DNA of 64,000 nt from a phage. Below, piece after piece: positions 1,304-64,000 of the stretch; within the stretch, counting starts at the first letter, position 1, and every line of letters begins with the position of its first letter. The translations under genes and the position numbers were made by a program. The notes beneath the pieces were generated by a model. The model did not search any database and had not been told where the DNA came from. It worked only from the letters and a program-made list of their open reading frames with translations. The stretch lies in sequence record PZ452596.1, one strand, 5' to 3'.

Positions 1304-2986
1304 TTAAACCATTACAGTAAATCGACCAACTTTCTTCATTTGAAGATGCTGACCATATGCTTGCGGGTCATGGTCTCTATGTGAAATAACAAAAACATTA
1401 GTATTTTTTAAACTATCTAAAATAGTTGAAATAGCTTTTACACCTTCAACGTCGGTCGCTGAATCAAAAACTTCATCAAGAATTAGTGTGTTTATTTTAA
1501 CACCTGAAACTTTTTCAGCAATATCACGCCAAGTAAATAAAAGAGCAATATCAATTCGTGCTTTTTCACCTTGACTGAATGAAGCATAACTAAAATCTTC
1601 ACGACCACGGGATTTAATTGTCTCATTAAATTCTTCATCTAATGTAAACACATAATCCGCTTCCATTATTTTAAGATAATGGTTAATCTGCTTATTAAAT
1701 AATGGAATGTACTTTTTAATAATAGCACCTTTAATACCAGAATCTTTGAGCATATCAGTCAAAATTCCTCGGTGGTATTTTTCCATTACTAAATTAGTTT
1801 TTGTCTTAACAATTTTATCAAGTTCTTCTTGAAGCAATGCTATTTCATCAGCGTGGTCAATAAACTCAGAAGATGCTTTTTCTATAGCCGCTTTAACTTT
1901 TTTAGCTTTATCTACCGTCGTGATTAGAGATTGCTTTTTATTGCGAATATCATTTGCCAACGACTGTTGGGTTTTAATATTATCTCGGTATTCATCAACA
2001 AGAACTTTTAAATTATCACGATGCGTTGAAAGCTGTTCAAATGAATGTGTGCATTCAGAAACTTTATCTTTAATTTTAGAAACAACTTTATCACCGGAAC
2101 TTAATTGTGACAAACAGGTTGGGCATAATCCACCTTCGTGATACATATTAATGACTTTATTATACGAGTCAATTTTTGATTTAATTAAAACTGCTTCTTG
2201 ACCGATTTTATTAAATGCATCAGTCGGGTCTTCATCCAAAACAATATTAACTAATCTTTCATTAGCTTCTTCTATTTCCGATTTTAGCGTTCTAGCTTCT
2301 TTTGCCAAATCATCATACATATTTTGAAGACGTGTAAGGTTGTCACCCGTTAATTTTTTCTGGCGTTCAACGTTATCATTATATATTTTAATTTGTTGGA
2401 TAATACTATCTTTTTTAACATCAAGCACTTGGTTTTGTGAATTTAATTCACGTATTAGTGCTTTATTAAGCTTATCCATTTCAGCTAATGTTCCTACCTC
2501 GAGCAGGTCTTCCACAAGCTTTCTTCGCGCAGGGGTCGACAAACCCATGAAAGGGGTATACCCTGCTGTACCAAGGACAACAATCTGCTTGAAACTGGCA
2601 TATGACATTCCGATAAGCTGTTCAAATTCTGCTTGGAAATCTTTACTGCTGGCAGATTCATTAAGACGTGTACCGTTAACGGTGATTTCGAAAACGTTCG
2701 GTTTTTGTCCTCTTTTGATATAGTACTTTTTCTCATCATATTCCATCCACAGTTCAACTAAAAGTTCTTTCTTATTTGTGCTGTTTATTAATTGGCCTTT
2801 CTTTACGTCACGAAATGGTTTGCCAAAAAGCCCAAATGTGATGGCTTCTAACATAGTAGACTTACCACCGCCATTTCGGCCAGTAATAAGAGTTTTTTGA
2901 ACCTTATCTAATTGAATGTCAATAGGATTTCCACCTACTGACATTATATTTTGATACCTAACTCGGTTTAGTTTAAAATTCTTCAC
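1304..2986 (-). CDS. 46: gp46 recombination endonuclease subunit (Rad50/SbcC-like ATPase)
   Basis: 560 aa; Walker A GRNGGGKSTMLEAI; C-terminal LILDEVFDS signature/Walker B; long coiled-coil middle. Confidence 0.92.
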   Translation of the reverse strand: MKNFKLNRVRYQNIMSVGGNPIDIQLDKVQKTLITGRNGGGKSTMLEAITFGLFGKPFRDVKKGQLINSTNKKELLVELWMEYDEKKYYIKRGQKPNVFEITVNGTRLNESASSKDFQAEFEQLIGMSYASFKQIVVLGTAGYTPFMGLSTPARRKLVEDLLEVGTLAEMDKLNKALIRELNSQNQVLDVKKDSIIQQIKIYNDNVERQKKLTGDNLTRLQNMYDDLAKEARTLKSEIEEANERLVNIVLDEDPTDAFNKIGQEAVLIKSKIDSYNKVINMYHEGGLCPTCLSQLSSGDKVVSKIKDKVSECTHSFEQLSTHRDNLKVLVDEYRDNIKTQQSLANDIRNKKQSLITTVDKAKKVKAAIEKASSEFIDHADEIALLQEELDKIVKTKTNLVMEKYHRGILTDMLKDSGIKGAIIKKYIPLFNKQINHYLKIMEADYVFTLDEEFNETIKSRGREDFSYASFSQGEKARIDIALLFTWRDIAEKVSGVKINTLILDEVFDSATDVEGVKAISTILDSLKNTNVFVISHRDHDPQAYGQHLQMKKVGRFTVMV

Positions 2987-3195
2987 AAAAGATTCCTTTT
3001 AATGTATCTTTTAGACCATTCTATCATATCATCATAATCTAAAAAGTATTCATCAAATTCAGCCATGCAAACAACGCCTTGTGCTGTTTTTGATGTAATG
3101 TAAATTATTCCAACATATCTAGAATCTTCTTCGATATAATCAATATTTGCTATGAATTCATCATTAATGTCAAATGTCGAAAACTTCACAGTATG
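2983..3195 (-). CDS. hypothetical protein (46.1-like by position)
   Basis: ORF between 46 and 47; start moved to ATG 3195 behind AAGGA RBS (track ORF starts at an upstream alternative codon). Confidence 0.45.
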   Translation of the reverse strand, partial: HTVKFSTFDINDEFIANIDYIEEDSRYVGIIYITSKTAQGVVCMAEFDEYFLDYDDMIEWSKRYIKRNLL

Positions 3196-3433
3196 CATCC
3201 TTAATACAAGATACAGCCATATCTCGCAATGATTTAGGTGTGTCATTATCTAAAATGTTGAAGTTAAAAGATACAGCCCAGTCAGTGCAGACCGTAACCT
3301 TTTTAATACAATTATCTTCAACCTCTAACGGTTCAAACCAATATTCAATAATTTCTTTATGCCCAATATCATCCTTTACTTCGCATTCAAAATGCTGACT
3401 CATCATAACATTTTTAAATTCATCAAAAGTCAT
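3170..3433 (-). CDS. hypothetical protein (46.2-like by position)
   Basis: 87-aa ORF, overlapping stop/start with gene 47. Confidence 0.5.
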   Translation of the reverse strand: MTFDEFKNVMMSQHFECEVKDDIGHKEIIEYWFEPLEVEDNCIKKVTVCTDWAVSFNFNILDNDTPKSLRDMAVSCIKDAYCEVFDI

Positions 3434-4449
3434 TGTGTTGCCTCTACATATAGCTGATTTGCATATTGAATAAGTGCTTCACGATCAGAATCAGTGATGT
3501 CTGGAATTGCATTAATATACTCTTCCATTAATGTCTGAAGCGATTGAACTTCAACTTCTTCACTGTCATCTGACTCAACAGAGTTATCAATCTTTGACAC
3601 AACTCGTAATGAATGCACAACTTTTTCTAGTTCAGATTCGAACTTCGTCAGATTTTTGTCTACTTCAGTTACTATAACACGTACTGATAGATTTGTAAAA
3701 TCTTTATAGTCAATTTTTCCCTTAAATGGATAATGAATTCGACGATGCCAGGTAGTGTTGTTTGGAATAAATTCCATTCGTTCTGTTTCTGTATCAAACA
3801 TCCAGAACCCACGAGGGTCATTCTCGTCACCTGCAGTTAGTGTCCATGGTGTCCCAATATATCTGACGTTAGCAGCCTCAGAGATAGTATGGAAGTGACC
3901 AGACCACACCTCTTTATAAGTCTTAAGGAAATCAGGTTCAAGACCGTGAGATTTCATTCCTTTATAAAAATAAAATCCATTCAGTTCCCAATGACCAACA
4001 CAAAAAGAAGCAGATGAAGTTTTGATATGCTCAAGAATTTCACCAGTATTTTCTTCGCACATCCAAGGAATCAAATCAATCAAACACCCGTCAAAATCTA
4101 CTGTAGTAGGCTTATCATATACTTTAACATTAGGATATTTAGCCAAAAGCTCAGTAGAGGCATTTGGATGCATTACATTTTTATAGTGGAGATCGTGATT
4201 TCCTACAATAGTATGTAATGTAATTCCAGCATCATCAAGCGTTTGAACTATTTCACGGGCGAACTCCATAGTTTTGTGTGTGATTGCTTTTCGCACATCA
4301 AAAATATCACCGTATTGAATCCAGGTAGTAATTCCATTTTTCTTAGAATATTCTATTGCTTGTTTAATTCCATCAATTTGAATACCGCGAATCCACTCAT
4401 CATCAGCTTTAACGCCTAAATGCCAATCACCTAAATTTAAAATTTTCAT
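3430..4449 (-). CDS. 47: gp47 recombination exonuclease subunit (Mre11/SbcD-like phosphoesterase)
   Basis: 339 aa; metallophosphoesterase motifs (GDWHLG, GNHD, GHWE). Confidence 0.92.
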   Translation of the reverse strand: MKILNLGDWHLGVKADDEWIRGIQIDGIKQAIEYSKKNGITTWIQYGDIFDVRKAITHKTMEFAREIVQTLDDAGITLHTIVGNHDLHYKNVMHPNASTELLAKYPNVKVYDKPTTVDFDGCLIDLIPWMCEENTGEILEHIKTSSASFCVGHWELNGFYFYKGMKSHGLEPDFLKTYKEVWSGHFHTISEAANVRYIGTPWTLTAGDENDPRGFWMFDTETERMEFIPNNTTWHRRIHYPFKGKIDYKDFTNLSVRVIVTEVDKNLTKFESELEKVVHSLRVVSKIDNSVESDDSEEVEVQSLQTLMEEYINAIPDITDSDREALIQYANQLYVEATQ

Positions 4450-4586
4450 ATATCAAGAACCGTCATTGAAATGCAAAATAAAATTATTGAAATAAATCCA
4501 TCTGGAGTACTAAAGAACCCAATCCAACATGCTCTAGTGAATAGATAAAATGCAAGAAAAAGTATCACATATCCAAGAAATATCAT
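4446..4586 (-). CDS. small hydrophobic protein (47.1-like)
   Basis: 46-aa ORF MIFLGYVILFLAFYLF..., stop overlaps gene 47 ATG (ATGA); below ORF-track size cutoff. Confidence 0.4.
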   Translation of the reverse strand: MIFLGYVILFLAFYLFTRACWIGFFSTPDGFISIILFCISMTVLDI

Positions 4587-4625: not shown

Positions 4626-5828
4626 TTATTTTGTAATAATGTCAAACTGTTCTTTAAAACAGAAGCTTGAATCTTGATGCTGATACAAAAATTCATATGC
4701 TTTTTCTCGCTCACGGTCATAAAGAGCTCGGTCAGATGACAGTTCTTTAATACGCTCGAATGTTGATTCCATATCATTTTCATCAAACCAAACGATACCG
4801 CTATCATGCGAGGTCAAAGGAGTATTATCAACACGGAATTTTAAATTTTCGCCAGTAGATTTCCAAAATACCGGAATTGTTCCACATGCACCAAGCTCGA
4901 GATGAGTATATTCTAAAGAACGTTGTAGATATTTTTTATCCAACTTACTCAACTGATAACCAAATCCGGATTTACTCATACGTTCAAGCATTTCGCTATT
5001 TACATAACGGTCAAGAATTTGCGTTGGCAAATTAGGAGCAATTTTAATTTGGTCTACTTGATGAAGACGATAATACTCGTATGGAATTCCTTTTTCTTTA
5101 ATAGGAATGAACGCTGGAGAACGTTCCAGACCTTCCATAATAGTACTTAGTCCTGCAGGTTTAAGATGTTTTTCGTGAAAATCAAACATCTGATAAAAAC
5201 CTTTCCATGTAGTCGTACGACCAATCCAACGGTTGATATTCATGTTAATTTCAGAAACATCTTTCCAGTAGGTTGATCGAACCTTTGCAATATCCATCGG
5301 AGGCTGAAAGTTATATACGGTCGGTGCTTCTTCAATATCATCAAACAGAGAAACAGTTTCTGGATACCATTCTTTCATCAGAACTTTATTAAAATCACCA
5401 TTATCAGAATGGCTAAAAATAACATCAGCTCGACGAACAGTTTCTTCTAATCCCAAATTTCGGCGCAAAGAAAGAGAAGAATGGTCATGTTGATAAACTA
5501 CAACACGAACCGAAGGTTTAATGTTATCAATAATTTTTTTATAGTTATTAATAGTGTCTTCTTCAACTGAAGTAGCAGGAACTGAATTGATAATTAGAAT
5601 ATCACAATCATTTACCAGCTTAAGTGTTTTATCGTATTCTTTTGCCAATAAAACCGGAATTGAAAATGATTTATAATCATGCGCGCAATTACGAGTAAAT
5701 GATTTATCTTTAGCATAAACCAAAGTTACTTCATGACCATTTTTAATAAACCAATCACGTTGCTCAAGAGAAAATTTAGTTACACCGCAACCTTCAAGAC
5801 CTCGAGCCATAAAAATACATACTTTCAT
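4626..5828 (-). CDS. a-gt: DNA alpha-glucosyltransferase
   Basis: 400 aa; N-terminus M.VCIFMARGLEGCGVTKFSLEQRDWF matches T4 alpha-gt as recalled. Confidence 0.9.
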   Translation of the reverse strand: MKVCIFMARGLEGCGVTKFSLEQRDWFIKNGHEVTLVYAKDKSFTRNCAHDYKSFSIPVLLAKEYDKTLKLVNDCDILIINSVPATSVEEDTINNYKKIIDNIKPSVRVVVYQHDHSSLSLRRNLGLEETVRRADVIFSHSDNGDFNKVLMKEWYPETVSLFDDIEEAPTVYNFQPPMDIAKVRSTYWKDVSEINMNINRWIGRTTTWKGFYQMFDFHEKHLKPAGLSTIMEGLERSPAFIPIKEKGIPYEYYRLHQVDQIKIAPNLPTQILDRYVNSEMLERMSKSGFGYQLSKLDKKYLQRSLEYTHLELGACGTIPVFWKSTGENLKFRVDNTPLTSHDSGIVWFDENDMESTFERIKELSSDRALYDREREKAYEFLYQHQDSSFCFKEQFDIITK

Positions 5829-6278: not shown

Positions 6279-6561
6279 TCATATCCTCAATCTGCGATCT
6301 AGTAGTCTTCCAAAGAATACTGATGAGTTCATCGTTATATGGCTGTTTTAGAATATCCCGACTTTTCTTGATAGCATATTCGTATTGAGCAAAATTATTA
6401 TTTTCAGCTGCAATCTGAGCGTGCTTATAAAGACGATTCAGTTCACGTTTGTTTTTAGACAATAACTTATTTGCTTTTCTTTCTGCTTCAAGACGGTTCT
6501 TTTCTTCAATAGAAGAAATAAGCTTTTCCACTTCATCATTAATTTCGGGTTTATCAGTCAT
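6244..6561 (-). CDS. hypothetical protein
   Basis: 105-aa ORF, charged helical composition. Confidence 0.5.
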   Translation of the reverse strand: MTDKPEINDEVEKLISSIEEKNRLEAERKANKLLSKNKRELNRLYKHAQIAAENNNFAQYEYAIKKSRDILKQPYNDELISILWKTTRSQIEDMIDAYTRKIQAS

Positions 6562-10337: not shown

Positions 10338-12151
10338 TGGTGCTTAACCCTATGCATGATTTCTTTATTTTTACCGAGATTAAATCCGCGTTCGTTCGGA
10401 TTTCCCAAATAACCACATGTTCTTCTTATGGTATTCATCTTTTTAGGATCAGTTTCTCCACAAATAGAACAAACAAATCCGTTTTCAGTAGGAGTCATTT
10501 CATGGGTACTTCCGCATGTAAAACATTTATCTACCGGCATGTTAACACCAAAATAATCTAAATGTTGTGCAGCATAATCCCATACGGCCTCAAGGCCTTT
10601 CAAGTTATTTTTCATATCAGGAAGTTCAACATAAGAAATGTGACCACCTGTCGCAATGAAATGATATGGCGCTTCACGAGAAATCTTTTCAAACGGAGTA
10701 ATATTTTCTTCTACTGAAACATGGAAACTGTTAGTGTACCAGCCTTTATCGGTAACATCTTTTACGCTTCCATATTTTTCTGTATCGAGTTTACAGAAGC
10801 GATAACAAAGGTTTTCAGCAGGAGTCGAATATAAACTAAAAGCAAATCCAGTTCTTTCAGTCCACTGTTTAAGATGAGCATTCATTTTAGTTAAAATTTC
10901 TTGTCCAATATCACGACCGACAAGAATATTCAATTCGTGAATACCAATGTATCCCAAAGACACTGAACTTCTGCCGTTTTTAAATAACTCAATTATATCG
11001 TCATCAGGTTTAAGACGAACCCCAAATGCACCTTCTTGGTAAAGAATAGGAGCAACAGTAGCTTTAACTCCTTTTAAGGAACTAATTCTACACATCAAAG
11101 CTTCAAAACACAGATCCATTCGTTCATTGAATAATTCAACAAATTTCTGTTCATTGAACTGTGTTCCAATATAAGAATCTAACGCGATGCGAGGAAGATT
11201 CAGTGTTACAACACCAAGATTATTACGTCCATCAAGAATTTCATTACCAGTCGAATCTTTCCATACGCTCAAGAAACTACGGCATCCCATCGGAGAAACA
11301 GGAACAGATGAACCAGTGATAGCTTTATTGTTCTTAGCTGAAATAATATCAGGATACATCCTTTTGCTTGCACACTCTAGAGCAAGCTGCTTAATATCAT
11401 AGTTCGGATCGTCTTTGTAAAGATTAACGCCTTCTTCGACGAACATAACAAGCTTAGGAAAAATAGGAGTTATCCCATCACGACCAAGACCTTTAATACG
11501 ATTTTTCAGAATTGCTTTCTGAATCATTCGTTCAGTCCAGTCAGTTCCCGTACCAAATGTAATTGTTACAAAAGGTGTTTGTCCGTTTGAACTAAAGAGA
11601 GTATTTACTTCATATTCATAAGCTTGGAATGCATCGTATACGTCTTTTTCTGTTTTAGATTGAGCATAATTCAACGCATCAGCGATTTGCCATTTTTCTG
11701 CATCCTCAATATGTTTTGCATAGGTGCGTTTAACATAAGGAGAAAGTACTTTATCTACATTCGCAAAAGTCGTTCCGCCATATTGATGGGAAGCAACTTG
11801 CGCAGTAATTTGTGCCATAATTGCAGTAGCAACACCGATTGATTTAGGAGTTTCAATCTGCGCATTACCAAGCTTAAATCCGTTCTCAAGCATTCCTTTT
11901 AAATCTACTAAACAACAATTAGTAAATGGAAGAGCAGGGGAATAATCAATATCATGGAAATGAATAATTCCGCTTTCATGCGCTTTCATAATAAAAGACG
12001 GGACCATATTTTTGGCAATGTGTTTAGACACAATACCAGCCATAAGGTCCCGTTGAGTTGGAAAAACACGAGAATCTTTATTAGCATTCTCGTTTAAAAG
12101 GTCTTTATTAGTTTTATGAATCAATCCTTCAATTTCTTTTTCAATTGTCAT
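10334..12151 (-). CDS. nrdD: anaerobic ribonucleoside-triphosphate reductase, uninterrupted
   Basis: 605 aa in one ORF; C-terminal glycyl-radical motif RRTCGYLG; Cys-rich Zn site. Confidence 0.95.
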   Translation of the reverse strand: MTIEKEIEGLIHKTNKDLLNENANKDSRVFPTQRDLMAGIVSKHIAKNMVPSFIMKAHESGIIHFHDIDYSPALPFTNCCLVDLKGMLENGFKLGNAQIETPKSIGVATAIMAQITAQVASHQYGGTTFANVDKVLSPYVKRTYAKHIEDAEKWQIADALNYAQSKTEKDVYDAFQAYEYEVNTLFSSNGQTPFVTITFGTGTDWTERMIQKAILKNRIKGLGRDGITPIFPKLVMFVEEGVNLYKDDPNYDIKQLALECASKRMYPDIISAKNNKAITGSSVPVSPMGCRSFLSVWKDSTGNEILDGRNNLGVVTLNLPRIALDSYIGTQFNEQKFVELFNERMDLCFEALMCRISSLKGVKATVAPILYQEGAFGVRLKPDDDIIELFKNGRSSVSLGYIGIHELNILVGRDIGQEILTKMNAHLKQWTERTGFAFSLYSTPAENLCYRFCKLDTEKYGSVKDVTDKGWYTNSFHVSVEENITPFEKISREAPYHFIATGGHISYVELPDMKNNLKGLEAVWDYAAQHLDYFGVNMPVDKCFTCGSTHEMTPTENGFVCSICGETDPKKMNTIRRTCGYLGNPNERGFNLGKNKEIMHRVKHQ

Positions 12152-12621
12152 TTTAAACTCTTTCTAAGCTGCTTCTTAAATGAAGCTATTAACTGTGTTT
12201 TGGTGTCAGATTCATTATATTCAAATCCTCTTTGAAGCATCTCGGCCATCATTTCCTCTTTTCCTAAACGAGAAAATTCCTTTGATTTATCTCCAACAAA
12301 GTTAGGGTGAATATTATTTTGGGTGTAATCGGATTTTAAATAAGTAAGTAAATTTTCTAACCATTCAAGATAATCAACACCCTGTCCCTTTAAGCCAGAA
12401 CGATTAAATTTATGCTTCATTTGACCTTCTGCGGCATTGCAGAGATTACAAAGCAATCCACGTACCTTTCCTGCTTTTGGTCCATTTAATTCATGGTCAT
12501 GGTCGAGGTGATTAGCTTGAACATCAGGATTTAGTTCTCGTTGGCAAATTAAGCATTTACCGTTTTGTGCATTATAAAATTTTTGTTTTTCTTCTTTGTA
12601 TAATTTGCCAGTCAATAACAT
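12148..12621 (-). CDS. 49: endonuclease VII (Holliday junction resolvase)
   Basis: 157 aa, MLLTGKLYKEEKQKFY... essentially identical to T4 gp49 as recalled. Confidence 0.95.
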   Translation of the reverse strand: MLLTGKLYKEEKQKFYNAQNGKCLICQRELNPDVQANHLDHDHELNGPKAGKVRGLLCNLCNAAEGQMKHKFNRSGLKGQGVDYLEWLENLLTYLKSDYTQNNIHPNFVGDKSKEFSRLGKEEMMAEMLQRGFEYNESDTKTQLIASFKKQLRKSLK

Positions 12622-26937: not shown

Positions 26938-27107
26938 ATATTAATTTCCAGAAGTTTTAAAATAATTCGCTTTTGCTTAAATATTTCAATAGTTAAATGA
27001 TCAGTATCTTTTTGACCAATTCCAATGGCAAAACCTTTATTAGCAGCGAGTTCAATTAAATTATCAAGTTCACGTAACACTTCGTACTGTAACTCATAAC
27101 TATTCAT
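26934..27107 (-). CDS. small hypothetical protein
   Basis: 57-aa ORF MNSYELQYEVLREL..., ATGA overlaps on both sides; below track cutoff. Confidence 0.4.
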   Translation of the reverse strand: MNSYELQYEVLRELDNLIELAANKGFAIGIGQKDTDHLTIEIFKQKRIILKLLEINI

Positions 27108-27310
27108 TTCGGTTTACCTTCTTTAACGAAATCTGGATAAGGATAAAATCCCGAATAAAATCCTTCACCTTTATGATTGATGCATCCTTTATTAGAACAA
27201 TAGCACCAATAATCGAAATCACAAGCCATTTCATCGTTGCATAAAGCAAAAACAACCGGCCACTTACACTTTTCGCAGTGGGCATTTTTAAGAATACTAG
27301 TTTGGCTCAT
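27104..27310 (-). CDS. small Cys-rich protein (possible zinc-binding)
   Basis: Start taken at the ATG overlapping upstream stop (ATGA); sequence has CEKC...C...C..C..C. Confidence 0.45.
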   Translation of the reverse strand: MSQTSILKNAHCEKCKWPVVFALCNDEMACDFDYWCYCSNKGCINHKGEGFYSGFYPYPDFVKEGKPK

Positions 27311-27519
27311 AACCATGTAACCTTTAAGCAATATTCTTCTACATGTTGTTTACGACCTTTCTTATCAATAAAGGTATATTCAACGAATGTTCCAATGTAG
27401 TCTTTATCTACATCATGTGGACTATTAATTGGACATTTAGTACGGCAAATGCGTTCCCATTGACGAATAATTACTGCCTTATTCTTTGGGTCATACGGAT
27501 GTGGATAATGTATATTCAT
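27307..27519 (-). CDS. small hypothetical protein
   Basis: Start at ATG 27519 overlapping upstream stop (ATGA): MNIHYPHPYD... Confidence 0.45.
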   Translation of the reverse strand: MNIHYPHPYDPKNKAVIIRQWERICRTKCPINSPHDVDKDYIGTFVEYTFIDKKGRKQHVEEYCLKVTWL

Positions 27520-27983
27520 AATAACGGTTCCCAATCAACAATCACAATTTCTAATTTAGAAGAATATGTATCTAAAATCCCCTCAATAATATCCCAGTTC
27601 CCTTTACCTATGCCTGCACCAATCCTAGGCATATAGATTGTGGGTTTAATCAGTTTATTTTCACCAAACTCATTTAATTCTAACATACAATTCATTAAAG
27701 CGGAATACTCAAAATTTGGCCCTGGTTGAAATTGAGTATAAAGGTTGAAGCAATACGCTTTATGAGTCCTAAAGTATTTTTCATAGACTGAGTAAGAACC
27801 GAGTTTAGTTACATCACCCCATTCAGTCTGTAATTTATCAGCTTCCAAAATTTTAGGGAAAGCTTTGGTTAATTGACCCGCTACGCCTGAACCCATAGTA
27901 TGAAAACAATTGCATCCATGCGCAATATTTTTACCTTCAGCGAAAAGGGCGACAATATCGCCCTTGATATATTTTACAATCAT
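27516..27983 (-). CDS. macro-domain-like protein (putative ADP-ribose binding/processing)
   Basis: 155 aa; GDIVAL...IAHGCNCFHTMGSGVAG and PRIGAGIGKG parallel the macro-domain motifs (VNAAN...GGGV; ISTG.YG). Confidence 0.5.
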   Translation of the reverse strand: MIVKYIKGDIVALFAEGKNIAHGCNCFHTMGSGVAGQLTKAFPKILEADKLQTEWGDVTKLGSYSVYEKYFRTHKAYCFNLYTQFQPGPNFEYSALMNCMLELNEFGENKLIKPTIYMPRIGAGIGKGNWDIIEGILDTYSSKLEIVIVDWEPLL

Positions 27984-28327
27984 CTAGTACTCAATCCTCG
28001 ATTATAAGAATCTACCAAACGGTCAACCATTGAATGACAAGCGGCTTTATCTTTCTCCTCCGCAACTGAGCATTCTAAGGTATTCCACTTTTTAGCATAT
28101 CGTTTTAATAATGTATCGTTTTTGTATCTGCTTGATTTATCTCTTTCTCCGTCTTTATATGCATATATTAATTTCTGTGCAAATTCAGCTTGGCATGCTT
28201 TATTTTTCCCACAATAATCTGCCGCAGTGCGGTTTACATATTCTCTAATTTCAGTATATGATGTATCTGCTGATGCAGAAGCAGAAAATGAAATTAATCC
28301 TATACATAAAACCAAAATTTTAGTCAT
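27980..28327 (-). CDS. vs: Vs-like secreted protein (valyl-tRNA synthetase modifier homolog by position and size)
   Basis: 115 aa with signal peptide; position between tk block and regB as in T4. Confidence 0.55.
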   Translation of the reverse strand: MTKILVLCIGLISFSASASADTSYTEIREYVNRTAADYCGKNKACQAEFAQKLIYAYKDGERDKSSRYKNDTLLKRYAKKWNTLECSVAEEKDKAACHSMVDRLVDSYNRGLSTR

Positions 28328-28865
28328 TTACTATTTCCAAAAGTTTATTATTTTTAAGGTAATTAGCCTTTTCTAGGACTTCAGAAGCATATTTAGAACC
28401 TGCTTTAACATTCCATCCCGAATTATAAGAGGATATTGCTTTTCTTATATCGCCCTTATGTATATTTAACCAATAAGAAAGTTCAATGTACGCCCAGGAA
28501 GCTGAATTGGATCGTTTATTCAACATTCTTTTTATTTCAGCATCAGTCATATTATAACCAAGTTCCTTAACTCTCGCTCGCATAGTAGGCAAATAATTTT
28601 GGAACATTCCATAAGCGTGATGCTTTGGTTTAGATTTTAAATTAACTCCGCCAGAGCTTTCTTGCCATAAAATGGCTGCCATTATATGACCTAATCCGCT
28701 CTTGTGGATATTTTTATGTGTTTTATATTTTCCATCCTTAGAAAATTGTTCCCCGAATTGATACGCGTAACGCATGTTATCGAGTTGGACATTACTGAAA
28801 GTATGCTCGGAGCTATGTGCCATCATTGAAATGGCCAATAGACCAGCGAGTAGTGCTTTTCTCAT
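28320..28865 (-). CDS. periplasmic lytic transglycosylase-like protein (vs.1-like)
   Basis: 181 aa; signal peptide; SLT-type motifs WQESSGG and AYGMFQ. Confidence 0.6.
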   Translation of the reverse strand: MRKALLAGLLAISMMAHSSEHTFSNVQLDNMRYAYQFGEQFSKDGKYKTHKNIHKSGLGHIMAAILWQESSGGVNLKSKPKHHAYGMFQNYLPTMRARVKELGYNMTDAEIKRMLNKRSNSASWAYIELSYWLNIHKGDIRKAISSYNSGWNVKAGSKYASEVLEKANYLKNNKLLEIVND

Positions 28866-28872
28866 GCTTACC

Positions 28873-29334
28873 TCATTGAGTTTTAATTACTGCTTTAGAA
28901 GCCTTTCCTGGTAAACGACGACTGTTAATAATTGCCATCCTACATTGAAGTGACGGGTCTTTGAACTTCTCGTTAGGTTTACAAACTGTAAATCCAAGCC
29001 AAAGATTTCCATCTGTGATTTCTAAACGTCCAGGACGATATTCAACCCCATCAATAAAATCCTCGTCAATGTCAGGACGCGGAGGCATACTCAGGAATTC
29101 ATTAACTTCTAAAACATGGTCTTTTATTTTATGGAATAATTCAAAAACGTATGTCTCATCAATCTCCCGTTGAATTGCGCGATCAAGAAGATGTTGAGAA
29201 TATTTTAGATGAAACGATGAGACCCCTGCTGCTTTTGATGCCTCACGAATCTCATTGTTAATTTGACGAAACTCCGACTCAAAGTGACGACGGAGCTTAT
29301 TTCGACGGATAAAAACTTCTGTGTTGATAGTCAT
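28873..29334 (-). CDS. regB: RegB site-specific endoribonuclease
   Basis: 153 aa, MTINTEVFIRRNKLRRHFESEFRQINNEIRE... matches T4 RegB as recalled. Confidence 0.92.
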   Translation of the reverse strand: MTINTEVFIRRNKLRRHFESEFRQINNEIREASKAAGVSSFHLKYSQHLLDRAIQREIDETYVFELFHKIKDHVLEVNEFLSMPPRPDIDEDFIDGVEYRPGRLEITDGNLWLGFTVCKPNEKFKDPSLQCRMAIINSRRLPGKASKAVIKTQ

Positions 29335-29361
29335 GTTATTCTCCTCTTAACTGATAGAAAA

Positions 29362-29391
29362 ATTATACCACAGTCAAGAGGAAAAGTAAAC
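29362..29391 (-). promoter_or_regulatory. early promoter upstream of regB
   Basis: Minus strand GTTTAC, 18 nt, TGGTATAAT, then GAGGAG RBS and regB ATG. Confidence 0.6.
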
Positions 29392-29393
29392 AG

Positions 29394-29672
29394 TTATTCT
29401 TTAAATCTGATCAATTTATTCATAGACTTTGAAACTTCTGCACGAACCTCATGTAGATTTTTGAGCTGTTCAAGACGCTGCGTATAGTAAGCAATTTCAT
29501 CTTCTTCGAGACAGTCCTGCGAATCTTCTTTAAGATAACGTGCATAGTCCTGAAAAGCGTTACGGATTACTTCCTGGAAGTCATCAAGACTTTGAATTTT
29601 CTTAGGAGCAGCAGATACACGACGAGGGGCAGTATAATACTCATAACCAAACCCTGCGCTTAATTGAGCCAT
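29394..29672 (-). CDS. hypothetical protein
   Basis: Start at ATG 29672 ([13 protein letters not shown]...), TAATG overlap with upstream gene. Confidence 0.45.
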
Positions 29673-29938
29673 TAGTATTTTTCCTCTGGTTGGAACACTG
29701 CACGACAAGCCCACATACTGGCTTCTTTGAGTTTCGTTTTAGCAATAGTTAACTGATCGAGGCTTTCGGAGTAATTCTTCGCGAGTTCATCATCTTCACA
29801 GCTATCAAATGCTTCCCAAAATTCATCGTATAAAGCATCAAAGATAAGTCCTAAACGAACTTCAGCGTCTTTAATAGCATTTACTTTACCGATTTTTTCG
29901 TCGGTATGTGGCTTATAACCTTTAATATCTTCAATCAT
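29672..29938 (-). CDS. small hypothetical protein in the vs.4 map position (possible Acb2-type sponge; positional guess only)
   Basis: 88 aa from ATG 29938 behind GAGGAAG RBS; no motif-level support. Confidence 0.35.
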
Positions 29939-30152
29939 ATTTGACTTCCTCACCAGTACATAAATCGTATTCAACTAAACGAATAGGTTCATGAATGCCA
30001 TATCCCTGAACAGAAATTTCTGTCGTAGGATAAATTCCACTAATATCACCCATGTTCCACGCTTCATTAAATTGCTGTTCGCCTGAATTACTAAACCATT
30101 CTGCGAAAGCATTTAGCACATCTTTAGAACCTTCAATAATTATCTTTGCCAT
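29931..30152 (-). CDS. hypothetical protein
   Basis: 73-aa ORF. Confidence 0.45.
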   Translation of the reverse strand: MAKIIIEGSKDVLNAFAEWFSNSGEQQFNEAWNMGDISGIYPTTEISVQGYGIHEPIRLVEYDLCTGEEVKYD

Positions 30153-30514
30153 TACAGACTCTCAGTAAAGGTACGAGCGATAACGTCGCGCTGCTGTTCC
30201 GGAGTCAGAGAGTTAAAGCGAACTGCATAACCGGATACACGGATGGTCAGCTGCGGATATTTTTCCGGATGCTTAACTGCATCTTCCAGAGTTTCACGAC
30301 GCAGAACGTTAACGTTCAGATGTTGACCACCTTCAATTTTAACTGTAGGCTGTGGCTCAATTTCAATTTCACGGGCATGCAAACCGTAGAAAATTTCTGG
30401 GTCTACAAAAGAGTCCTCTTTAAAGGTTTTAGAGACAATAATTCGTGCTTGAATACCATCTTCAAAATAAATAGTGCCTTTGTGTGTGCCTTCAAGAATT
30501 TGATATGCTTTCAT
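30152..30514 (-). CDS. autonomous glycyl radical cofactor (GrcA/YfiD-like)
   Basis: 120 aa; C-terminal about 70 aa [41 protein letters not shown]... matches E. coli GrcA with glycyl-radical RVSGYAV; 3' half GC-rich. Confidence 0.85.
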
Positions 30515-30521
30515 ATAAACC

Positions 30522-30851
30522 TCAATTAGAAAATAAATTTATCCAAGATTGTTCTTTAATTAAAAATGGCTCAGAATCATATGCCATTAAACTTTGCGTA
30601 ATTAATCCTTTAAAAGGTCCATCAATAAATTCCATGGTAAAATATGGAATTTTATTCATTAGCCGTGCATTAGGAGCAGTACACAAAACTCTGCATCCTT
30701 TGAATACGCCTTTTTGTAATTTGTATTGCTTAGGATAAAATTCGCTCAAGACGTTGTTATTTGCCAAAATTTCAAAATGATTCACCAATTTATTTTTAAT
30801 AGTTTTTGGCGAAAAATAAAGATATTCGAAAAGCTGAGTGTCTGTCATCAT
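30522..30851 (-). CDS. hypothetical protein
   Basis: Start at ATGATG 30851 overlapping upstream stop. Confidence 0.45.
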
Positions 30852-31387
30852 TGCATTCCGATTACGAAAAACTGTGGACGAGTAATACCACCAATACAAC
30901 ATTTAATATTACAGCAGCAGTGTACAGTGTCAATATGGACACTATAAATCTTATCCATATCAGGAGATTTGACAGGCTCATCAATTATATACAAAATTCG
31001 CGAAAGCGATAAACCTCTGAACTTGCTTCCTTTATTACCAATAAAACTGCGCACAGAATCAGTAAATAAACGAAAACGTATATCATCATTAGAATAACGC
31101 GAAAATTCCTTTTTAATGTTATTTGCAGAAATTTTAGCGTAAGCTGAAGTATTAGAAAGAACAATAACTGTTCCGCCATCATACAACCAATTAGCAGCAA
31201 AATTAGTTACTGCAGTTGATTTACCGGATTGACGTCCACCATCTAGTCGAAGTGTGCAGTACTGTTTAAGTAATTCTTCAAATGGCGGGATATATTCGTT
31301 TTTACAAATTTCTTCTACTCTAGCATCAGAATGGTGTGTAAAAGCATTCATCAGGGATAGATAAGGACCAGTTAAAAATGTTCTCAT
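30848..31387 (-). CDS. stand-alone P-loop ATPase with terminase-like Walker motifs
   Basis: 179 aa from ATG 31387 behind GAGAGAATAAA; Walker A LDGGRQSGKST and Walker B ILYIIDEP resemble gp17 LSRQLGKTT / MIYIDEC in this window. Confidence 0.5.
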   Translation of the reverse strand: MRTFLTGPYLSLMNAFTHHSDARVEEICKNEYIPPFEELLKQYCTLRLDGGRQSGKSTAVTNFAANWLYDGGTVIVLSNTSAYAKISANNIKKEFSRYSNDDIRFRLFTDSVRSFIGNKGSKFRGLSLSRILYIIDEPVKSPDMDKIYSVHIDTVHCCCNIKCCIGGITRPQFFVIGMQ

Positions 31388-31527
31388 TTTATTCTCTCTA
31401 AATTTGGGCCATTCCATGGCGCATGAATTGTCCATTTCTGTATTTATCCATTACCGCACTCAGGCTCGACCTTATTACAGGTTGGCGGAATCCCTCATAG
31501 AATCATGAGGTCCAGGTTGTTCCCATA

Positions 31528-32001
31528 TTATTTGAACGATTTAACGTACTGAATAGAACCTTTACTATTCACAAAGGCAATTTTACCATTTTTGTTATAC
31601 ATGGTAGCAGTACGTTGATAGCCATAAGTTTGTTTACCAGATTGATAACCAACTAATGCAAAATTATCTTCACCCATTTTATTCTGTTTAGCGCGAATAC
31701 GTTCATGACCATGTGCCATAAGAACCTTAGCATCACCAGTTGCAATGGATCGACGAGTTTTTTCATCTTCAACTGTATTAACAAAGTCGTCAAATGAATC
31801 AAATTTAGCATGAGATTTATTATATAGTTTTCCATCTACTGCATAATTATATCCTTGTACATCCATCTCAACTTCTGTACCATCATCCAGTACAGCAGTG
31901 ATTTTCTGTCCTTTTTTAAATTTCAAAAGATCAGTAAAAGATTCAGCAATAATTTGAGAACTAATAGCTGCTTCAGTAATAAATTCTTGATATGTTTTCA
32001 T
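31528..32001 (-). CDS. internal protein (IPIII/IPII-like) with capsid targeting sequence
   Basis: 157 aa; N-terminus MKTYQEFITEA is the T4 internal-protein CTS with a gp21-type LxE cleavage context. Confidence 0.65.
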   Translation of the reverse strand: MKTYQEFITEAAISSQIIAESFTDLLKFKKGQKITAVLDDGTEVEMDVQGYNYAVDGKLYNKSHAKFDSFDDFVNTVEDEKTRRSIATGDAKVLMAHGHERIRAKQNKMGEDNFALVGYQSGKQTYGYQRTATMYNKNGKIAFVNSKGSIQYVKSFK

Positions 32002-32061
32002 GTGTATCCTTTAAATGTAAATATTTTAATTAATAATTTATCTCTTCAAGTAACTGTGAAT

Positions 32062-32091
32062 ATACTATCACAATTCTAGGAGAAAGTAAAT
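32062..32091 (-). promoter_or_regulatory. early promoter upstream of internal protein gene
   Basis: Minus strand ATTTAC, 18 nt, TGATAGTAT. Confidence 0.45.
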
Positions 32092-32095
32092 AACT

Positions 32096-33064
<969 letters not shown>

Positions 33065-33083
<19 letters not shown>

Positions 33084-33553
33084 TCAGTGATAAAGTTATT
33101 TAAATTTTGAGTATATTTCTTTTCATCAAAAATCTTTTGCTGTCTGCGTAACCGCCATGGCATTTCAATGAACGCGCACCATATCCCAGATAATATTGCT
33201 GCTGTCAAAATATTAACAAGCATAATTAAAAGAATCCAATCTCCTATTCTGTCTATTGGATTTTTTATAAAAAAGTAAAATACGAATGATGTCACAGGAA
33301 GACTAATAATATACCACAGAATCATAATTTTATCTGTGAACCAATCAGCGTTCGTTAACTTAGCGCGACCATTATGAATACACACGAATTTATCATCTGT
33401 TATAATAGATGGCTTAGCTGCTTGATATCCCATTCTAAACTCCCTAATCAACAAATTTTTCATATCTTCGGAACAACCATTCCAGTCAACTCTATCAACT
33501 GAAATGCCATCATCCCCATCATCTAAATCATACCAGCGAGTTTTTAAAATCAT
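33065..33553 (-). CDS. membrane protein, family with conserved C-terminal motif
   Basis: 162 aa; two hydrophobic helices; ends NNFITECRKLK. Confidence 0.5.
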
Positions 33554-33912
33554 TTAATTTTCCTACAATCACTCACAAACTCTTCCATTGATTCTTTTTC
33601 AATATAAGACATGTAGCTATTATATTCTTTTAATTGTATTTTGTAATCTTTTTTTCTTTGCCAATTTATTTTAAAATTATCATAATGAAAATATAACATG
33701 GTACCAAAGAATGAAAATAATGAAATAATTTTAGTATAGTGAAGTTCACTCCAAACTTCTATTATATTTACTGTGCCGTCAATGTTTAAAATAAGACAGT
33801 CAATTAACAATCCAAAAAGACTACCCGCAAGAGCTGCAGCCAACGCCACAGCAAAAATTAAAAATGACTCAGGAAGCGAATATTTGACTTTATTTAGTTT
33901 TGGCTTTTGCAT
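33550..33912 (-). CDS. membrane protein, family with conserved C-terminal motif
   Basis: 120 aa; hydrophobic helices; ends EEFVSDCRKIK. Confidence 0.5.
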   Translation of the reverse strand: MQKPKLNKVKYSLPESFLIFAVALAAALAGSLFGLLIDCLILNIDGTVNIIEVWSELHYTKIISLFSFFGTMLYFHYDNFKINWQRKKDYKIQLKEYNSYMSYIEKESMEEFVSDCRKIK

Positions 33913-34286
33913 CGTGATTCCTTAACAAATTTCATAATTTCATCAAATTCATACGCAGCAAGTTTAAGCTGATGTTCCTTTTTAATCTTTTTACACTGTG
34001 CTTTCCAATCACGTACGCGTTTACGATAATGCCTTCCTTGATACCAGTATCCTACCCAATTTACAGGTACTAATAAAAATGGAACTATCATTGGAAGAAT
34101 TAGTGTTGACGCAAATATTATATTAGATTCAATATTAGTCATAACATCTATAACTATTCCAACCCCCAGTAGAATTACAAATGATACAGCTATTACAGGA
34201 CCTATTAATACATCAGTAGAAATTATCTGACGCTTTAATTCATACTTTAAGGGTTTACTTGGAAGATACATTGATGGCTTTGACAT
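33894..34286 (-). CDS. membrane protein, family with conserved C-terminal motif
   Basis: 130 aa; hydrophobic helices; ends MKFVKESRCKSQN. Confidence 0.5.
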   Translation of the reverse strand: MSKPSMYLPSKPLKYELKRQIISTDVLIGPVIAVSFVILLGVGIVIDVMTNIESNIIFASTLILPMIVPFLLVPVNWVGYWYQGRHYRKRVRDWKAQCKKIKKEHQLKLAAYEFDEIMKFVKESRCKSQN

Positions 34287-34863
34287 ATTCTCTGCATTCC
34301 TTCACAAATTTTTCTAGTAATAAATCGCTTTCAAAATTGGGATTTTCTACGAATTTATCAAAAAGATCATCAACAATAGTTAAGATATTCTTTTTACTAA
34401 GAATACGTTTATTTTCATGCTTCGTTTCAGAATCAACTATAAGAGTAAAGAAATATTTCTTTCCCTGAAATTTTACCGTAGTATCAATATAGAATAAATT
34501 TGACTTTTGTAAGTTACGTTTAAACCATGCGTCACTTAAACTATAAACGCCAAGATAATCATAATCGTCGTTTAAATAACAAACTGTCCATTCAGGAGAA
34601 ATGAAATCAGTAAATTCAACATCAAAATCACATGTTAATAAATGAATTGATTCAATACTGTTAATAAGTATTCCAGGACGTATTAAAGACTTTTTACCTC
34701 TAGAAAATCTTCCAGAAAGACTTTCATCAGTTTCATATGAAGAACCCCAATAATAATTACGCCCTTCTGCCATACGTTTAAGAGCATTTAATAATTGGTC
34801 TGGAACATCAACCTGTCTTTGGAACTCTTCAAACATTGAATTGAAATCACTTTGCATTTTCAT
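34255..34863 (-). CDS. hypothetical soluble protein with the same C-terminal motif
   Basis: 202 aa; C-terminus EKFVKECREYVKAIN. Confidence 0.5.
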   Translation of the reverse strand: MKMQSDFNSMFEEFQRQVDVPDQLLNALKRMAEGRNYYWGSSYETDESLSGRFSRGKKSLIRPGILINSIESIHLLTCDFDVEFTDFISPEWTVCYLNDDYDYLGVYSLSDAWFKRNLQKSNLFYIDTTVKFQGKKYFFTLIVDSETKHENKRILSKKNILTIVDDLFDKFVENPNFESDLLLEKFVKECREYVKAINVSSK

Positions 34864-34884
34864 TCCTACTTACTCCAAGTAATA

Positions 34885-34898
34885 GGGGCCGAAGCCCC
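34885..34898 (-). terminator. hairpin GGGGCCGAAGCCCC
   Basis: 5-bp GC stem with 4-nt loop then T-rich tract, 3' of the 34905 gene. Confidence 0.45.
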
Positions 34899-34904
34899 TT
34901 ATCA

Positions 34905-35498
34905 TTATTTCAGAGAATTAATATATTCCTGAACATCGGCAGAGGTAGTTTCAACCCCAGAAATATTACCATTAAAGGTTTCAACTCGAGCAAGAGTATC
35001 TTCAATATCAACCTTAGTCAGTGCTGCAATTTCAACTACATCATCAGCAGTACTAATTCCGAGAGCATTTGCTGCGCGAGTTTCACGGATATATTCCAAT
35101 TTAACTGCAAGTTCTTGACGAGCATCATCTAACTCAACTACTTTCTTGGCGATTTCAATTCGCATTTCAGCATACCCATCAGCTTTAGTAGTCAACTGCT
35201 CAGCTGTTCGACGATATAGCAAACCGAGCTTAGCGTGCATTGTTACATCTTGACCTTCAGAAAGGAGCTTGCGAATTTCGCGCTCTTTTGATTCGGCTTG
35301 TCGATTCTTTTCAATAACAAGTTCACGAATACGTTTTTCTTCATTAATAGATTTAACAGAAGCAGTTTTTAGGTCTTTAATTTTATCAAGTAATTTTGCT
35401 GCTGCAGCAGTGTACTGTTCTTCAACAGATAGATTTTTAGCCATAGCAGAACCAAGTTTAGTGCGAATAAACTCAACAATTTTCTTCAGCATGTTCAT
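34905..35498 (-). CDS. coiled-coil protein, PspA/IM30-like (tentative)
   Basis: 197 aa; heptad-rich helical sequence with DTLAR segment; resemblance to PspA family is by eye only. Confidence 0.4.
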
Positions 35499-35542
35499 AG
35501 CATTTCCTTTAGTTAATTAAGGGTTTTATAATCCGTGGGAGT

Positions 35543-35572
35543 ATTATACTCTACTCCCAAGAGTTTGTAAAC
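35543..35572 (-). promoter_or_regulatory. early promoter
   Basis: Minus strand GTTTAC, 18 nt, GAGTATAAT; -10 lies within palindrome GGGAGTA...TACTCCC. Confidence 0.55.
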
Positions 35573-35905
35573 TTATTCTTCGTCCAATTCATCAATAAAT
35601 TTATCGATACTACTAATAATAGACTCATCGATAATTAACAAAGCATCATCATCCATAATATTAATATTTTCTAAAGCATCAATATAAGCTTGATTGACTA
35701 TAGACCATGCCCTTTGAAAATATGGGGCTTCATCATCAGGACAAATATCCCGCACGCCTTCAAAGATACGTTTGGCATAATCTAACACCCATTGTACAGG
35801 CATGTTTTGAGAACGTTCGTTAAACTCTTTAAAGTCCTTAGATTCAAAAAGCTCTTCAGGATAATAATTTCTATTACAAAAAGCTTTACTAAAGTTACGT
35901 TTCAT
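35573..35905 (-). CDS. acidic hypothetical protein
   Basis: 110 aa with acidic C-terminal tail. Confidence 0.5.
   Translation of the reverse strand: MKRNFSKAFCNRNYYPEELFESKDFKEFNERSQNMPVQWVLDYAKRIFEGVRDICPDDEAPYFQRAWSIVNQAYIDALENINIMDDDALLIIDESIISSIDKFIDELDEE

Positions 35906-60863: not shown

Positions 60864-64000
<3,137 letters not shown>

Follow-up and report, generated by a model that had tools for sequence, protein, structure and literature searches.

A predicted stand-alone paralog of the gp17 ATPase subdomain, encoded by vs.8 beside a denV-less interval of phage RB27

Results

The vs.8 locus of RB27

The DNA analysed here is a stretch of 64,000 nucleotides (sequence record PZ452596.1), referred to as the window. 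The window is from Enterobacteria phage RB27: megablast gave 100% identity over the 2.6 kb around the open reading frame (ORF) described below, and identity to RB27 was 100% across positions 27100–35700. The whole window matches the RB27 RefSeq sequence except for two substitutions, two bases that differ at an ambiguous N of gene 49 and a single copy of a 47-nt repeat. The features considered in this study are listed in Table 1.

Table 1. Positions in the window of vs.8, its motifs, the surrounding genes and gene 17
Feature	Coordinates	Strand	Evidence and remarks
vs.6, GrcA-like glycyl-radical protein	30152..30514	-	Pfam Gly_radical, E 2.8e-18; 99% identical to T4 vs.6
vs.7, 108 aa	30522..30848	-	ATGA overlap of its start codon with the stop codon of vs.8; 98% identical to T4 vs.7
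vs.8 coding sequence, 179-aa core	30848..31387	-	ORF list; 97.2% identical to T4 vs.8; PHROG 1488; RB27_125; hhalign against gp17
Walker B ILYIIDEP, residues 131–138, Glu137 directly after Asp	30974..30997	-	Aligns to gp17 MIYIDE, residues 251–256
Walker A (P-loop) LDGGRQSGKST, residues 48–58	31214..31246	-	Read from the sequence; aligns to gp17 SRQLGKTT, residues 161–168
N-terminal extension of the RefSeq 195-aa version, probably untranslated leader	31388..31435	-	Different frames in T4 and RB27; indels; starts of homologs
Ip4, internal virion protein	31528..32001	-	PHROG 3155, E 1.4e-101; Pfam DUF7412; RB27_126
denV deletion scar	32011..32047	-	Alignment with ECO4 and T2
e, T4-type lysozyme, upstream boundary of the variable interval	32096..32590	-	96% identical to T4 e
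Gene 17, terminase large subunit, 610 codons	62169..63998	+	ATPase region, residues 144–260, matches the vs.8 family profile

The 179-aa ORF that a preliminary description of this DNA had listed was present on the minus strand. It was already annotated in RB27, where RefSeq lists it under RB27_125 as hypothetical and adds the note 'vs.8'. The stop codon lies at 30848–30850, and in-frame ATG codons at 31387 and 31435 would give products of 179 and 195 aa, respectively. The 179-aa product reads MRTFLTGPYLSLMNAF...LDGGRQSGKST...ILYIIDEP...FFVIGMQ, i.e. its N-terminus is MRTFLTGPYL and its last residues are GMQ.

Sequence comparisons indicate that vs.8 is a real gene. Vs.8 matched PHROG 1488 over its full length (E 1.3e-79, profile positions 2–177 of 177), homologs were found in ∼1010 phage records, and there was an excess of synonymous changes relative to T4. 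The T4 protein (NP_049732; 'ORF 64.0', 25.0 kDa, from the denV–regB interval) has a core that is 97% identical to the RB27 copy (97.2% across the 179 aa), the codon differences being 10 synonymous and 5 non-synonymous. PHROG 1488 represents the Vs.8 family, whose function is given as unknown in PHROG.

The annotated start of vs.8 varies, giving 219 aa in T4 and 195 aa in the RefSeq entry for RB27 around a conserved core of 179 aa; the original T4 entry (X04567) offered alternative ORFs of 219, 203, 190 and 179 aa. Upstream of MRTFL the T4 and RB27 DNAs are ∼95% identical, indels are present and the annotated extensions are in different frames, reading ...QFMCHGMAQTYRAYREE-MRTFL in T4 and MDNSCAMEWPKFRENK-MRTFL in RB27. 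The MRTFL/MKTFL methionine is the starting point of the distant homologs and of the PHROG profile. Because the T4 and RB27 frames differ upstream of MRTFL and the homologs and the profile begin there, the start at 31387 is better supported than the RefSeq start at 31435, making 30848–31387 the best-supported coding sequence. The region between the two start codons is probably an untranslated leader.

Scanning positions 30400–32200 for promoters and terminators gave no more promoter-like sites than were seen in shuffled sequences, and none in the vs.8 leader; no sigma-70-like promoter was found in the 140 nt of this leader that are conserved. When the conserved leader was folded as RNA, a z-score of −0.17 was obtained with a 7-bp hairpin only. 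An Rfam search of positions 30000–33000 produced no match.

vs.8 as the constant flank of a variable interval

The gene order in T4 is nudE–e–ipIII–ipII–denV–vs.8–vs.7–vs.6. In RB27, RB14 and T2, it is nudE–e–Ip4–vs.8–vs.7–vs.6. Tequatrovirus ECO4, a close relative, has the order e–denV–Ip4–vs.8, and in a Mosigvirus vs.8 is preceded by denV together with two small ORFs. The RB27 gene is thus in the orthologous position to that of T4, directly upstream of vs.7 and vs.6, and in both phages it is preceded by a conserved leader that extends to the preceding stop codon. It is the upstream neighbour that differs, being denV in T4 and Ip4 in RB27. The preliminary description had placed the ORF where T4 carries denV. 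The synteny comparison with T4, T2 and the RB phages contradicts this: T4 has vs.8 at the same place, beside denV. The position and the gene are therefore those already present in T4, where vs.8 is an occupant with no characterised function.

Between T4 and the window, nucleotide homology continues without a break from vs.8 as far as the stop codon of the gene preceding it (denV in T4, Ip4 in RB27). It begins again at the 5′ terminus of the internal-protein gene adjoining e; the blastn breakpoints were at 31528 and 31970. Relative to T4, the body of ipIII together with ipII and denV (∼1.44 kb) has been exchanged for the body of Ip4 (0.44 kb), so that Ip4 fills the slot of ipIII–ipII–denV. By these alignments, vs.8 is outside the exchanged segment and forms the constant border of the e-to-vs.8 interval, which is highly variable.

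The Ip4|vs.8 junction of the RB27 type was found in 311 phage records and the denV|vs.8 junction of the T4 type in 20. The e–Ip4–vs.8 arrangement of T2, which is also that of RB14, RB51, AR1 and ∼300 other records, has the same order and the same denV-less junction as RB27. T2 differs from RB27 in that its vs.8 is frameshifted. Two frameshifts are present in the T2 record, so vs.8 is apparently dispensable in this phage, unless the frameshifts are sequencing errors, which they could be.

In the leftward direction, vs.8 belongs to the non-essential block vs.8–vs.7–vs.6–vs.5–vs.4–vs.3, of which the RB27 vs.7, vs.6, vs.4 and vs.3 genes are 93–99% identical to their T4 counterparts. The vs.4 gene of the window is an Acb2 homolog (Pfam Acb2_Tad1_hairpin, E 1.5e-19). 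The vs.3 product shares 98% identity with TadIV-1 of T4, which acts as a sponge against type IV Thoeris (Nat Commun 2026, PMC13243611). The block thus contains two genes for proven anti-defence sponges, vs.4 (Acb2) and vs.3 (TadIV-1). When Vs.3 to Vs.8 were each expressed singly, type IV Thoeris was inhibited by Vs.3 only (PMC13243611). The contexts of two distant vs.8 homologs contained no vs.7 homolog, and a nearby glycyl-radical gene was seen in only one of them.

Loss of denV between e and Ip4

A tblastn search with T4 DenV gave no credible DenV-like sequence in the window, in agreement with the preliminary description, which had seen no such ORF there. Neither was denV found elsewhere in the complete RB27 genome (reassembled, 165,179 bp), where the best match with default settings had an E of 4.6; the same query found T4's own denV at E 3e-93. 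DenV homologs are present in 1119 records.

Reducing the tblastn word size to 2 produced one 49-residue match to DenV in RB27, with 41% identity and an E of 0.003, a score that was reached by none of 200 shuffled DenV sequences. We rejected this match as a relocated denV, as it covers DenV residues 56–101 only, without the catalytic N-terminus, and lies within the intact 157-aa product of gene 49, endonuclease VII, a gene that is also present in T4. Vs.8 itself had no likeness to DenV, including its catalytic N-terminus (Thr2 and Glu23), by tblastn or Pfam.

Alignment of the window with ECO4 and T2 identified a scar between e and Ip4. It consists of a degenerate denV ribosome-binding region, GAAGAGATAAA (compared to GGAGGGATAAAATG in ECO4), and, after it, the final 17 nt of a denV ORF with its stop codon, AAAATATTTACATTTAA. 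Both flanks match ECO4, and ∼9 nt in the window are aligned with the ∼400 nt of the denV ORF in ECO4. T2 has the same scar, shorter by a few bases. The alignments thus indicate that RB27, like T2, lost denV via a ∼400-bp deletion between e and Ip4, which places the empty site of the RB27/T2 lineage ∼620 bp from the vs.8 start.

The preliminary description had proposed that a small ATPase replaced the DNA repair gene. This did not happen, because vs.8 adjoins denV in T4; ECO4 and the Mosigvirus likewise carry both genes.

No DenV was found by tblastn in the whole T2 genome (MH751506). This is in line with the classical finding that T2 has a naturally higher UV sensitivity than T4 because it lacks the v-gene function. 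Given the established function of DenV, the UV sensitivity of RB27 should be about equal to that of T2.

Motifs and distribution of the Vs.8 family

The two nucleotide-binding motifs noted previously, LDGGRQSGKST and ILYIIDEP, were confirmed, and both proved to be invariant or nearly so in an alignment of 19 homologs. In the Walker A motif, GK[ST] is preceded by the Arg-Gln that is typical of terminases. The positions that are invariant among these homologs, which are from T4-like phages, are D49-G-G-R-Q-S-G-K56, R113, R124-G125, I134-I135, E137-P138 and a C-terminal F-x-x-G-x-Q; within Walker B, L132 is also invariant. In a widened alignment with 46 members, T45, R52, G55 and A59 were at least 90% conserved.

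An exhaustive profile search of 1.84 billion protein representatives found 50 relatives of Vs.8, all of them short (∼140–185 aa at full length) and all confined to Tevenvirinae-like phages. Because every relative is short, the Vs.8 proteins are an autonomous small family rather than fragments of a larger protein. NCBIfam gave no match to Vs.8, and the PADLOC models gave only generic P-loop noise (E > 0.005). Searching the PDB sequences with either the single Vs.8 sequence or the 19-member profile gave nothing below an E of 0.06.

Relationship of Vs.8 to the terminase gp17

The motifs of Vs.8 had been likened to LSRQLGKTT and MIYIDEC of the terminase large subunit. The gp17 of the window carries both, and they are collinear with those of Vs.8 in a profile alignment. 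When the 46-member vs.8 profile was compared to the window gp17 using hhalign, a match to gp17 residues 144–260 was obtained (Prob 92.8%, E 3.9e-7), with Walker A (SRQLGKT), the RG motif and Walker B (MIYIDE) in the same order over 105 columns. A convincing match was given by the 46-member profile only, the 19-member profile producing a probability of 11.5%; pairwise BLASTP between Vs.8 and gp17 was not significant.

Among secondary matches, the terminase large subunit family phrog_2 matched Vs.8 with an E of 3.2e-6, and the Pfam families AAA_14 (E 0.004), AAA_30 and Terminase_6N gave sub-threshold matches. Terminase_6N was matched weakly by 18 of the 46 family members, and Vs.8 itself scored 14.1–14.3 bits, below the 22-bit Pfam gathering cut-off. 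Profile searching therefore bore out the suggested homology to a terminase ATPase (hhalign, 92.8%) while the score below the Pfam cut-off argues against membership of the terminases.

The homology with gp17 covers the ATPase core, including a Walker A with the P-loop arginine and a Walker B with DE, and corresponds to gp17 subdomain I (Terminase_6N; PDB 2o0h); the two proteins are ∼17–21% identical. The differences are substantial: gp17 has 610 aa compared to the 179 aa of Vs.8, which lacks the TTT motif, subdomain II, the nuclease domain and the N-terminal 140 residues. There is no Thr/Ser-rich coupling (C) motif in Vs.8, which ends ...FFVIGMQ, the final position being G-[M/T/V/I/C]-Q across the family. 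From the topology of the predicted structure (see below), we infer that this G-M-Q position would be the equivalent of the gp17 TTT coupling motif. An RNase-H-like nuclease domain was likewise not found in the 179 aa, so that 'terminase-like' without a nuclease domain, the wording of the preliminary description, holds at the level of homology. Vs.8 is not a terminase, falling below the Terminase_6N threshold and lacking both the coupling motif and the nuclease domain. It is best described, from the profile alignment, as a predicted stand-alone paralog of the first ATPase subdomain of gp17.

Predicted structure of Vs.8

The AlphaFold2 model of Vs.8 (mean pLDDT 81.7, pTM 0.83) is a five-stranded alpha/beta domain with a long conserved helix N-terminal to it. 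The chain ends right after the strand that topologically matches the TTT-bearing strand of gp17. With a RecA-like alpha/beta core, a Walker A motif and a Walker B motif followed by Glu, the model has the features of an ASCE-class P-loop NTPase.

Foldseek searches of the PDB gave weak generic P-loop matches (TM ∼0.45), and searches of viral models gave many similar uncharacterised proteins of 140–180 aa that are encoded by jumbo phages and large myoviruses. Structurally, SF2 helicase domains matched Vs.8 as well as terminases did. The likeness to the RecA1 domain of SF2 helicases (Mfd, DEAD-box) is at the fold level only, with 7–16% identity, and Vs.8 differs from these proteins in lacking a second RecA-like domain and any helicase motif other than Walker A and Walker B.

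Discussion

We consider it highly probable that the ORF is the RB27 ortholog of vs.8, that it encodes a paralog of the gp17 ATPase subdomain likely to act as an accessory in phage–host conflict, and that the loss of denV is a separate matter. On the last point, vs.8 is unrelated to the denV loss. The homology to the terminase ATPase and the recognition by EcAvs2 are not new, having been published in 2026. [quoted passage not shown] The toxicity was observed with the T4 protein, to which the RB27 protein is 97% identical.

The preprint grouped vs.8 with Ksap1 and Ksap2 as possible non-terminase activators, an anti-defence role being one possibility (10.64898/2026.04.30.721860). Ksap1 and Ksap2 are similar to Vs.8 in being small and lineage-restricted, in having a terminase-ATPase-like core of sheet and helices and in triggering an Avs2 homolog on co-expression. 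They differ in coming from Dhillonvirus and Stephanstirmvirinae, and terminase sequence homology and Walker motifs were reported for vs.8 only (10.64898/2026.04.30.721860).

The retained motifs suggest how Vs.8 might work. The protein has kept the nucleotide-binding and catalytic elements, i.e. the P-loop RQxGK[S/T], the RG motif and the Walker B hhIIDE, and by its topology it would end right after the strand where gp17 has TTT. The N-terminal region of gp17, its second ATPase subdomain and its nuclease domain have no counterpart in Vs.8. Judged by its sequence, Vs.8 would bind and perhaps hydrolyse ATP and would be incapable of packaging DNA. Its most likely role, by analogy with the neighbouring genes, may be that of an accessory ATP-binding protein in phage–host conflict, and terminase-sensing immunity would recognise it owing to its terminase-ATPase likeness or ancestry. 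An anti-defence function is suggested by the gene neighbourhood. Against such a function, the published data have Vs.8 activating rather than inhibiting EcAvs2 and, when expressed alone, not inhibiting type IV Thoeris.

A more specific proposal is that Vs.8 is a retained mimic of the ATPase domain directed against terminase-sensing immunity (Avs1–3, Upx or other sensors), for instance an ATP-loaded decoy, made before gp17, that occupies, titrates, desensitises or mis-times Avs- or Upx-type sensors; the activation of EcAvs2 would then be a host counter-adaptation. The sequence homology and structural likeness to the gp17 ATPase are consistent with this, as are the predicted fit in the terminase pocket of EcAvs2, the toxicity on co-expression and the two proven sponges in the same block, and an anti-defence role is among the possibilities raised in the preprint (10.64898/2026.04.30.721860). 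We nevertheless regard the decoy as unlikely, since the sole datum is one of activation and not inhibition, and T2 apparently tolerates a broken vs.8. We know of no sensor that is blocked by Vs.8. If the proposal were true, Vs.8 would represent a new class of anti-defence proteins, one that arose by duplication of part of the packaging motor.

It is distinctly improbable that Vs.8 assists the packaging motor, e.g. by joining or regulating gp17 rings or the gp16–gp17 interaction. Paralogy to the gp17 ATPase subdomain, with Walker A, Walker B and the RG motif, would be expected of such an auxiliary, but the gene has non-essential accessory genes as neighbours and is distant from genes 16 and 17, and the protein lacks the coupling motif, subdomain II and the regions that bind the portal and gp16. 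Its break in T2 and its confinement to Tevenvirinae-like phages (50 representatives among the 1.84 billion proteins) also argue against a part in packaging, as does the fact that gp17 by itself sufficed to reconstitute T4 packaging in vitro.

Still less probable is that Vs.8 is a small nucleotide or polynucleotide kinase unrelated to terminases, its motifs being alike only in a generic way. A kinase would fit the size and the single-domain architecture, the weak generic AAA/P-loop matches in Pfam (such as AAA_14) and the weak matches of one family member to TK and of another to CobU. However, the top structural matches are to ASCE-type helicase and terminase domains rather than to folds of the kinase-GTPase class, Walker B has the Asp-Glu (DE) pair of ASCE ATPases, and the match of the family profile to gp17 spans 105 collinear columns. 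Finally, a functional or positional substitution of denV by the small ATPase, for which the missing denV in the window and genome and the location between the GrcA-like and internal-protein genes might speak, is scarcely credible given that the T4 gene order already refutes it, T4, ECO4 and the Mosigvirus having denV and vs.8 together, that T4/RB27 homology runs through vs.8 to the upstream stop codon, that denV has left its scar between e and Ip4, and that Vs.8 is unlike DenV.

What T4-like phages gain from a truncated version of the packaging ATPase is a real question, and one that others have raised already. The arrangement without denV is not peculiar to RB27, being common to T2 and about 300 other sequenced phages. 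The value of the present analysis is that the loss of denV in the T2/RB27 lineage is pinned to a defined scar between e and Ip4, and that vs.8 is shown, by comparison of the genomes, to stay fixed at the edge of a cassette region that is highly variable.

The denV scar between e and Ip4

The interval between the lysozyme gene e and the internal-protein gene Ip4 contains a short segment that is the remnant of a deleted denV (endonuclease V) gene. On the minus strand it reads as a degenerate denV ribosome-binding region followed by the final 17 nt of the denV ORF, including the stop codon. In ECO4, a Tequatrovirus with the gene order e-denV-Ip4-vs.8, an intact denV occupies the exact site of the scar. 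T2 carries the same scar as the window, shorter by a few bases.

In T4, both ipII and ipIII are preceded by a copy of the 5′ cassette of the internal-protein genes, which comprises the upstream region and the MKTYQEF... targeting peptide. This cassette matches the 5′ end of Ip4 in the window and falls at one breakpoint of the cassette exchange, a coincidence that makes it a plausible recombination substrate.

We also noted that residues 56–101 of T4 DenV locally resemble the C-terminal region of endonuclease VII, the gene 49 product (window 12163–12309, minus strand), in a 49-aa alignment that is 41% identical (E 0.003). None of 200 shuffled DenV controls reached the score of this match. The catalytic residues of DenV lie outside it, and the similarity is probably a chance match.

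Coordinates of the features in the window and, where given, in T4 (local positions in sequence L002)
Feature	Window	Strand	T4	Remarks
Gene 49, endonuclease VII	12148–12621			intact, 157 aa
vs.3	29394–29672	minus		92 aa; 98% identical to T4 TadIV-1
vs.4, Acb2 homolog	29672–29938	minus		Pfam Acb2_Tad1_hairpin, E 1.5e-19
vs.8 leader	31388–31527	minus		non-coding, 140 nt; Ip4-vs.8 gap
Internal-protein 5′ cassette	31970–32082		5688–5824; 6385–6530	
denV deletion scar	32011–32047	minus		between e and Ip4
Gene 16, small terminase ORF	61691–62185			intact, 164 aa

The leader and the neighbours of vs.8

The leader upstream of vs.8, which encodes a terminase-like ATPase, is ∼95% conserved among T4, RB14 and RB27 and begins directly past the stop codon of the upstream gene, whichever gene that is. 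A 7-bp hairpin (CCUCAUG...CAUGAGG) lies within it. Searches of the leader turned up neither a promoter nor an Rfam family, and its fold was not significant.

vs.8 shares its gene block with two anti-defence genes a short way downstream, vs.4 and vs.3 (window 29394–29938, minus strand). The vs.3 product is nearly identical to T4 TadIV-1, a type IV Thoeris sponge, and its length matches the functional ‘long’ form of that protein (about 90 aa).

Phage PP397179.1 (L013, local positions 2840–4516) has a distant vs.8 homolog (29% identity) and, two genes upstream, a 217-aa glycyl-radical protein that is 63% identical to vs.6 across the vs.6 length. The proximity of the glycyl-radical gene to the vs.8 homolog indicates that the linkage of vs.8 and vs.6 is kept, although the two genes stand in the opposite order and there is no vs.7.

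Differences in reading frames between records

The RefSeq RB27 record differs from the window in gene 49 and in gene 16. At window 12458–12459, in gene 49, it has one N and one base missing, and the gene is annotated there as two ORFs, 49 and 49′, rather than the single intact ORF of the window. At the start of gene 16 it carries a 47-nt tandem duplication (record 92015–92109) where the window has one copy (61691–61740); the annotated product is 140 aa, as against 164 aa in the window.

In T2, vs.8 (L008 4761–5296; MH751506.1 61760–62295) is split by two frameshifts into three reading frames, the pieces being annotated in the record as vs.8-A and vs.8-B. Each piece is 96–100% identical to the window protein. 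The split reflects either a real pseudogene or a sequencing error; if the pseudogene is real, vs.8 would be dispensable.
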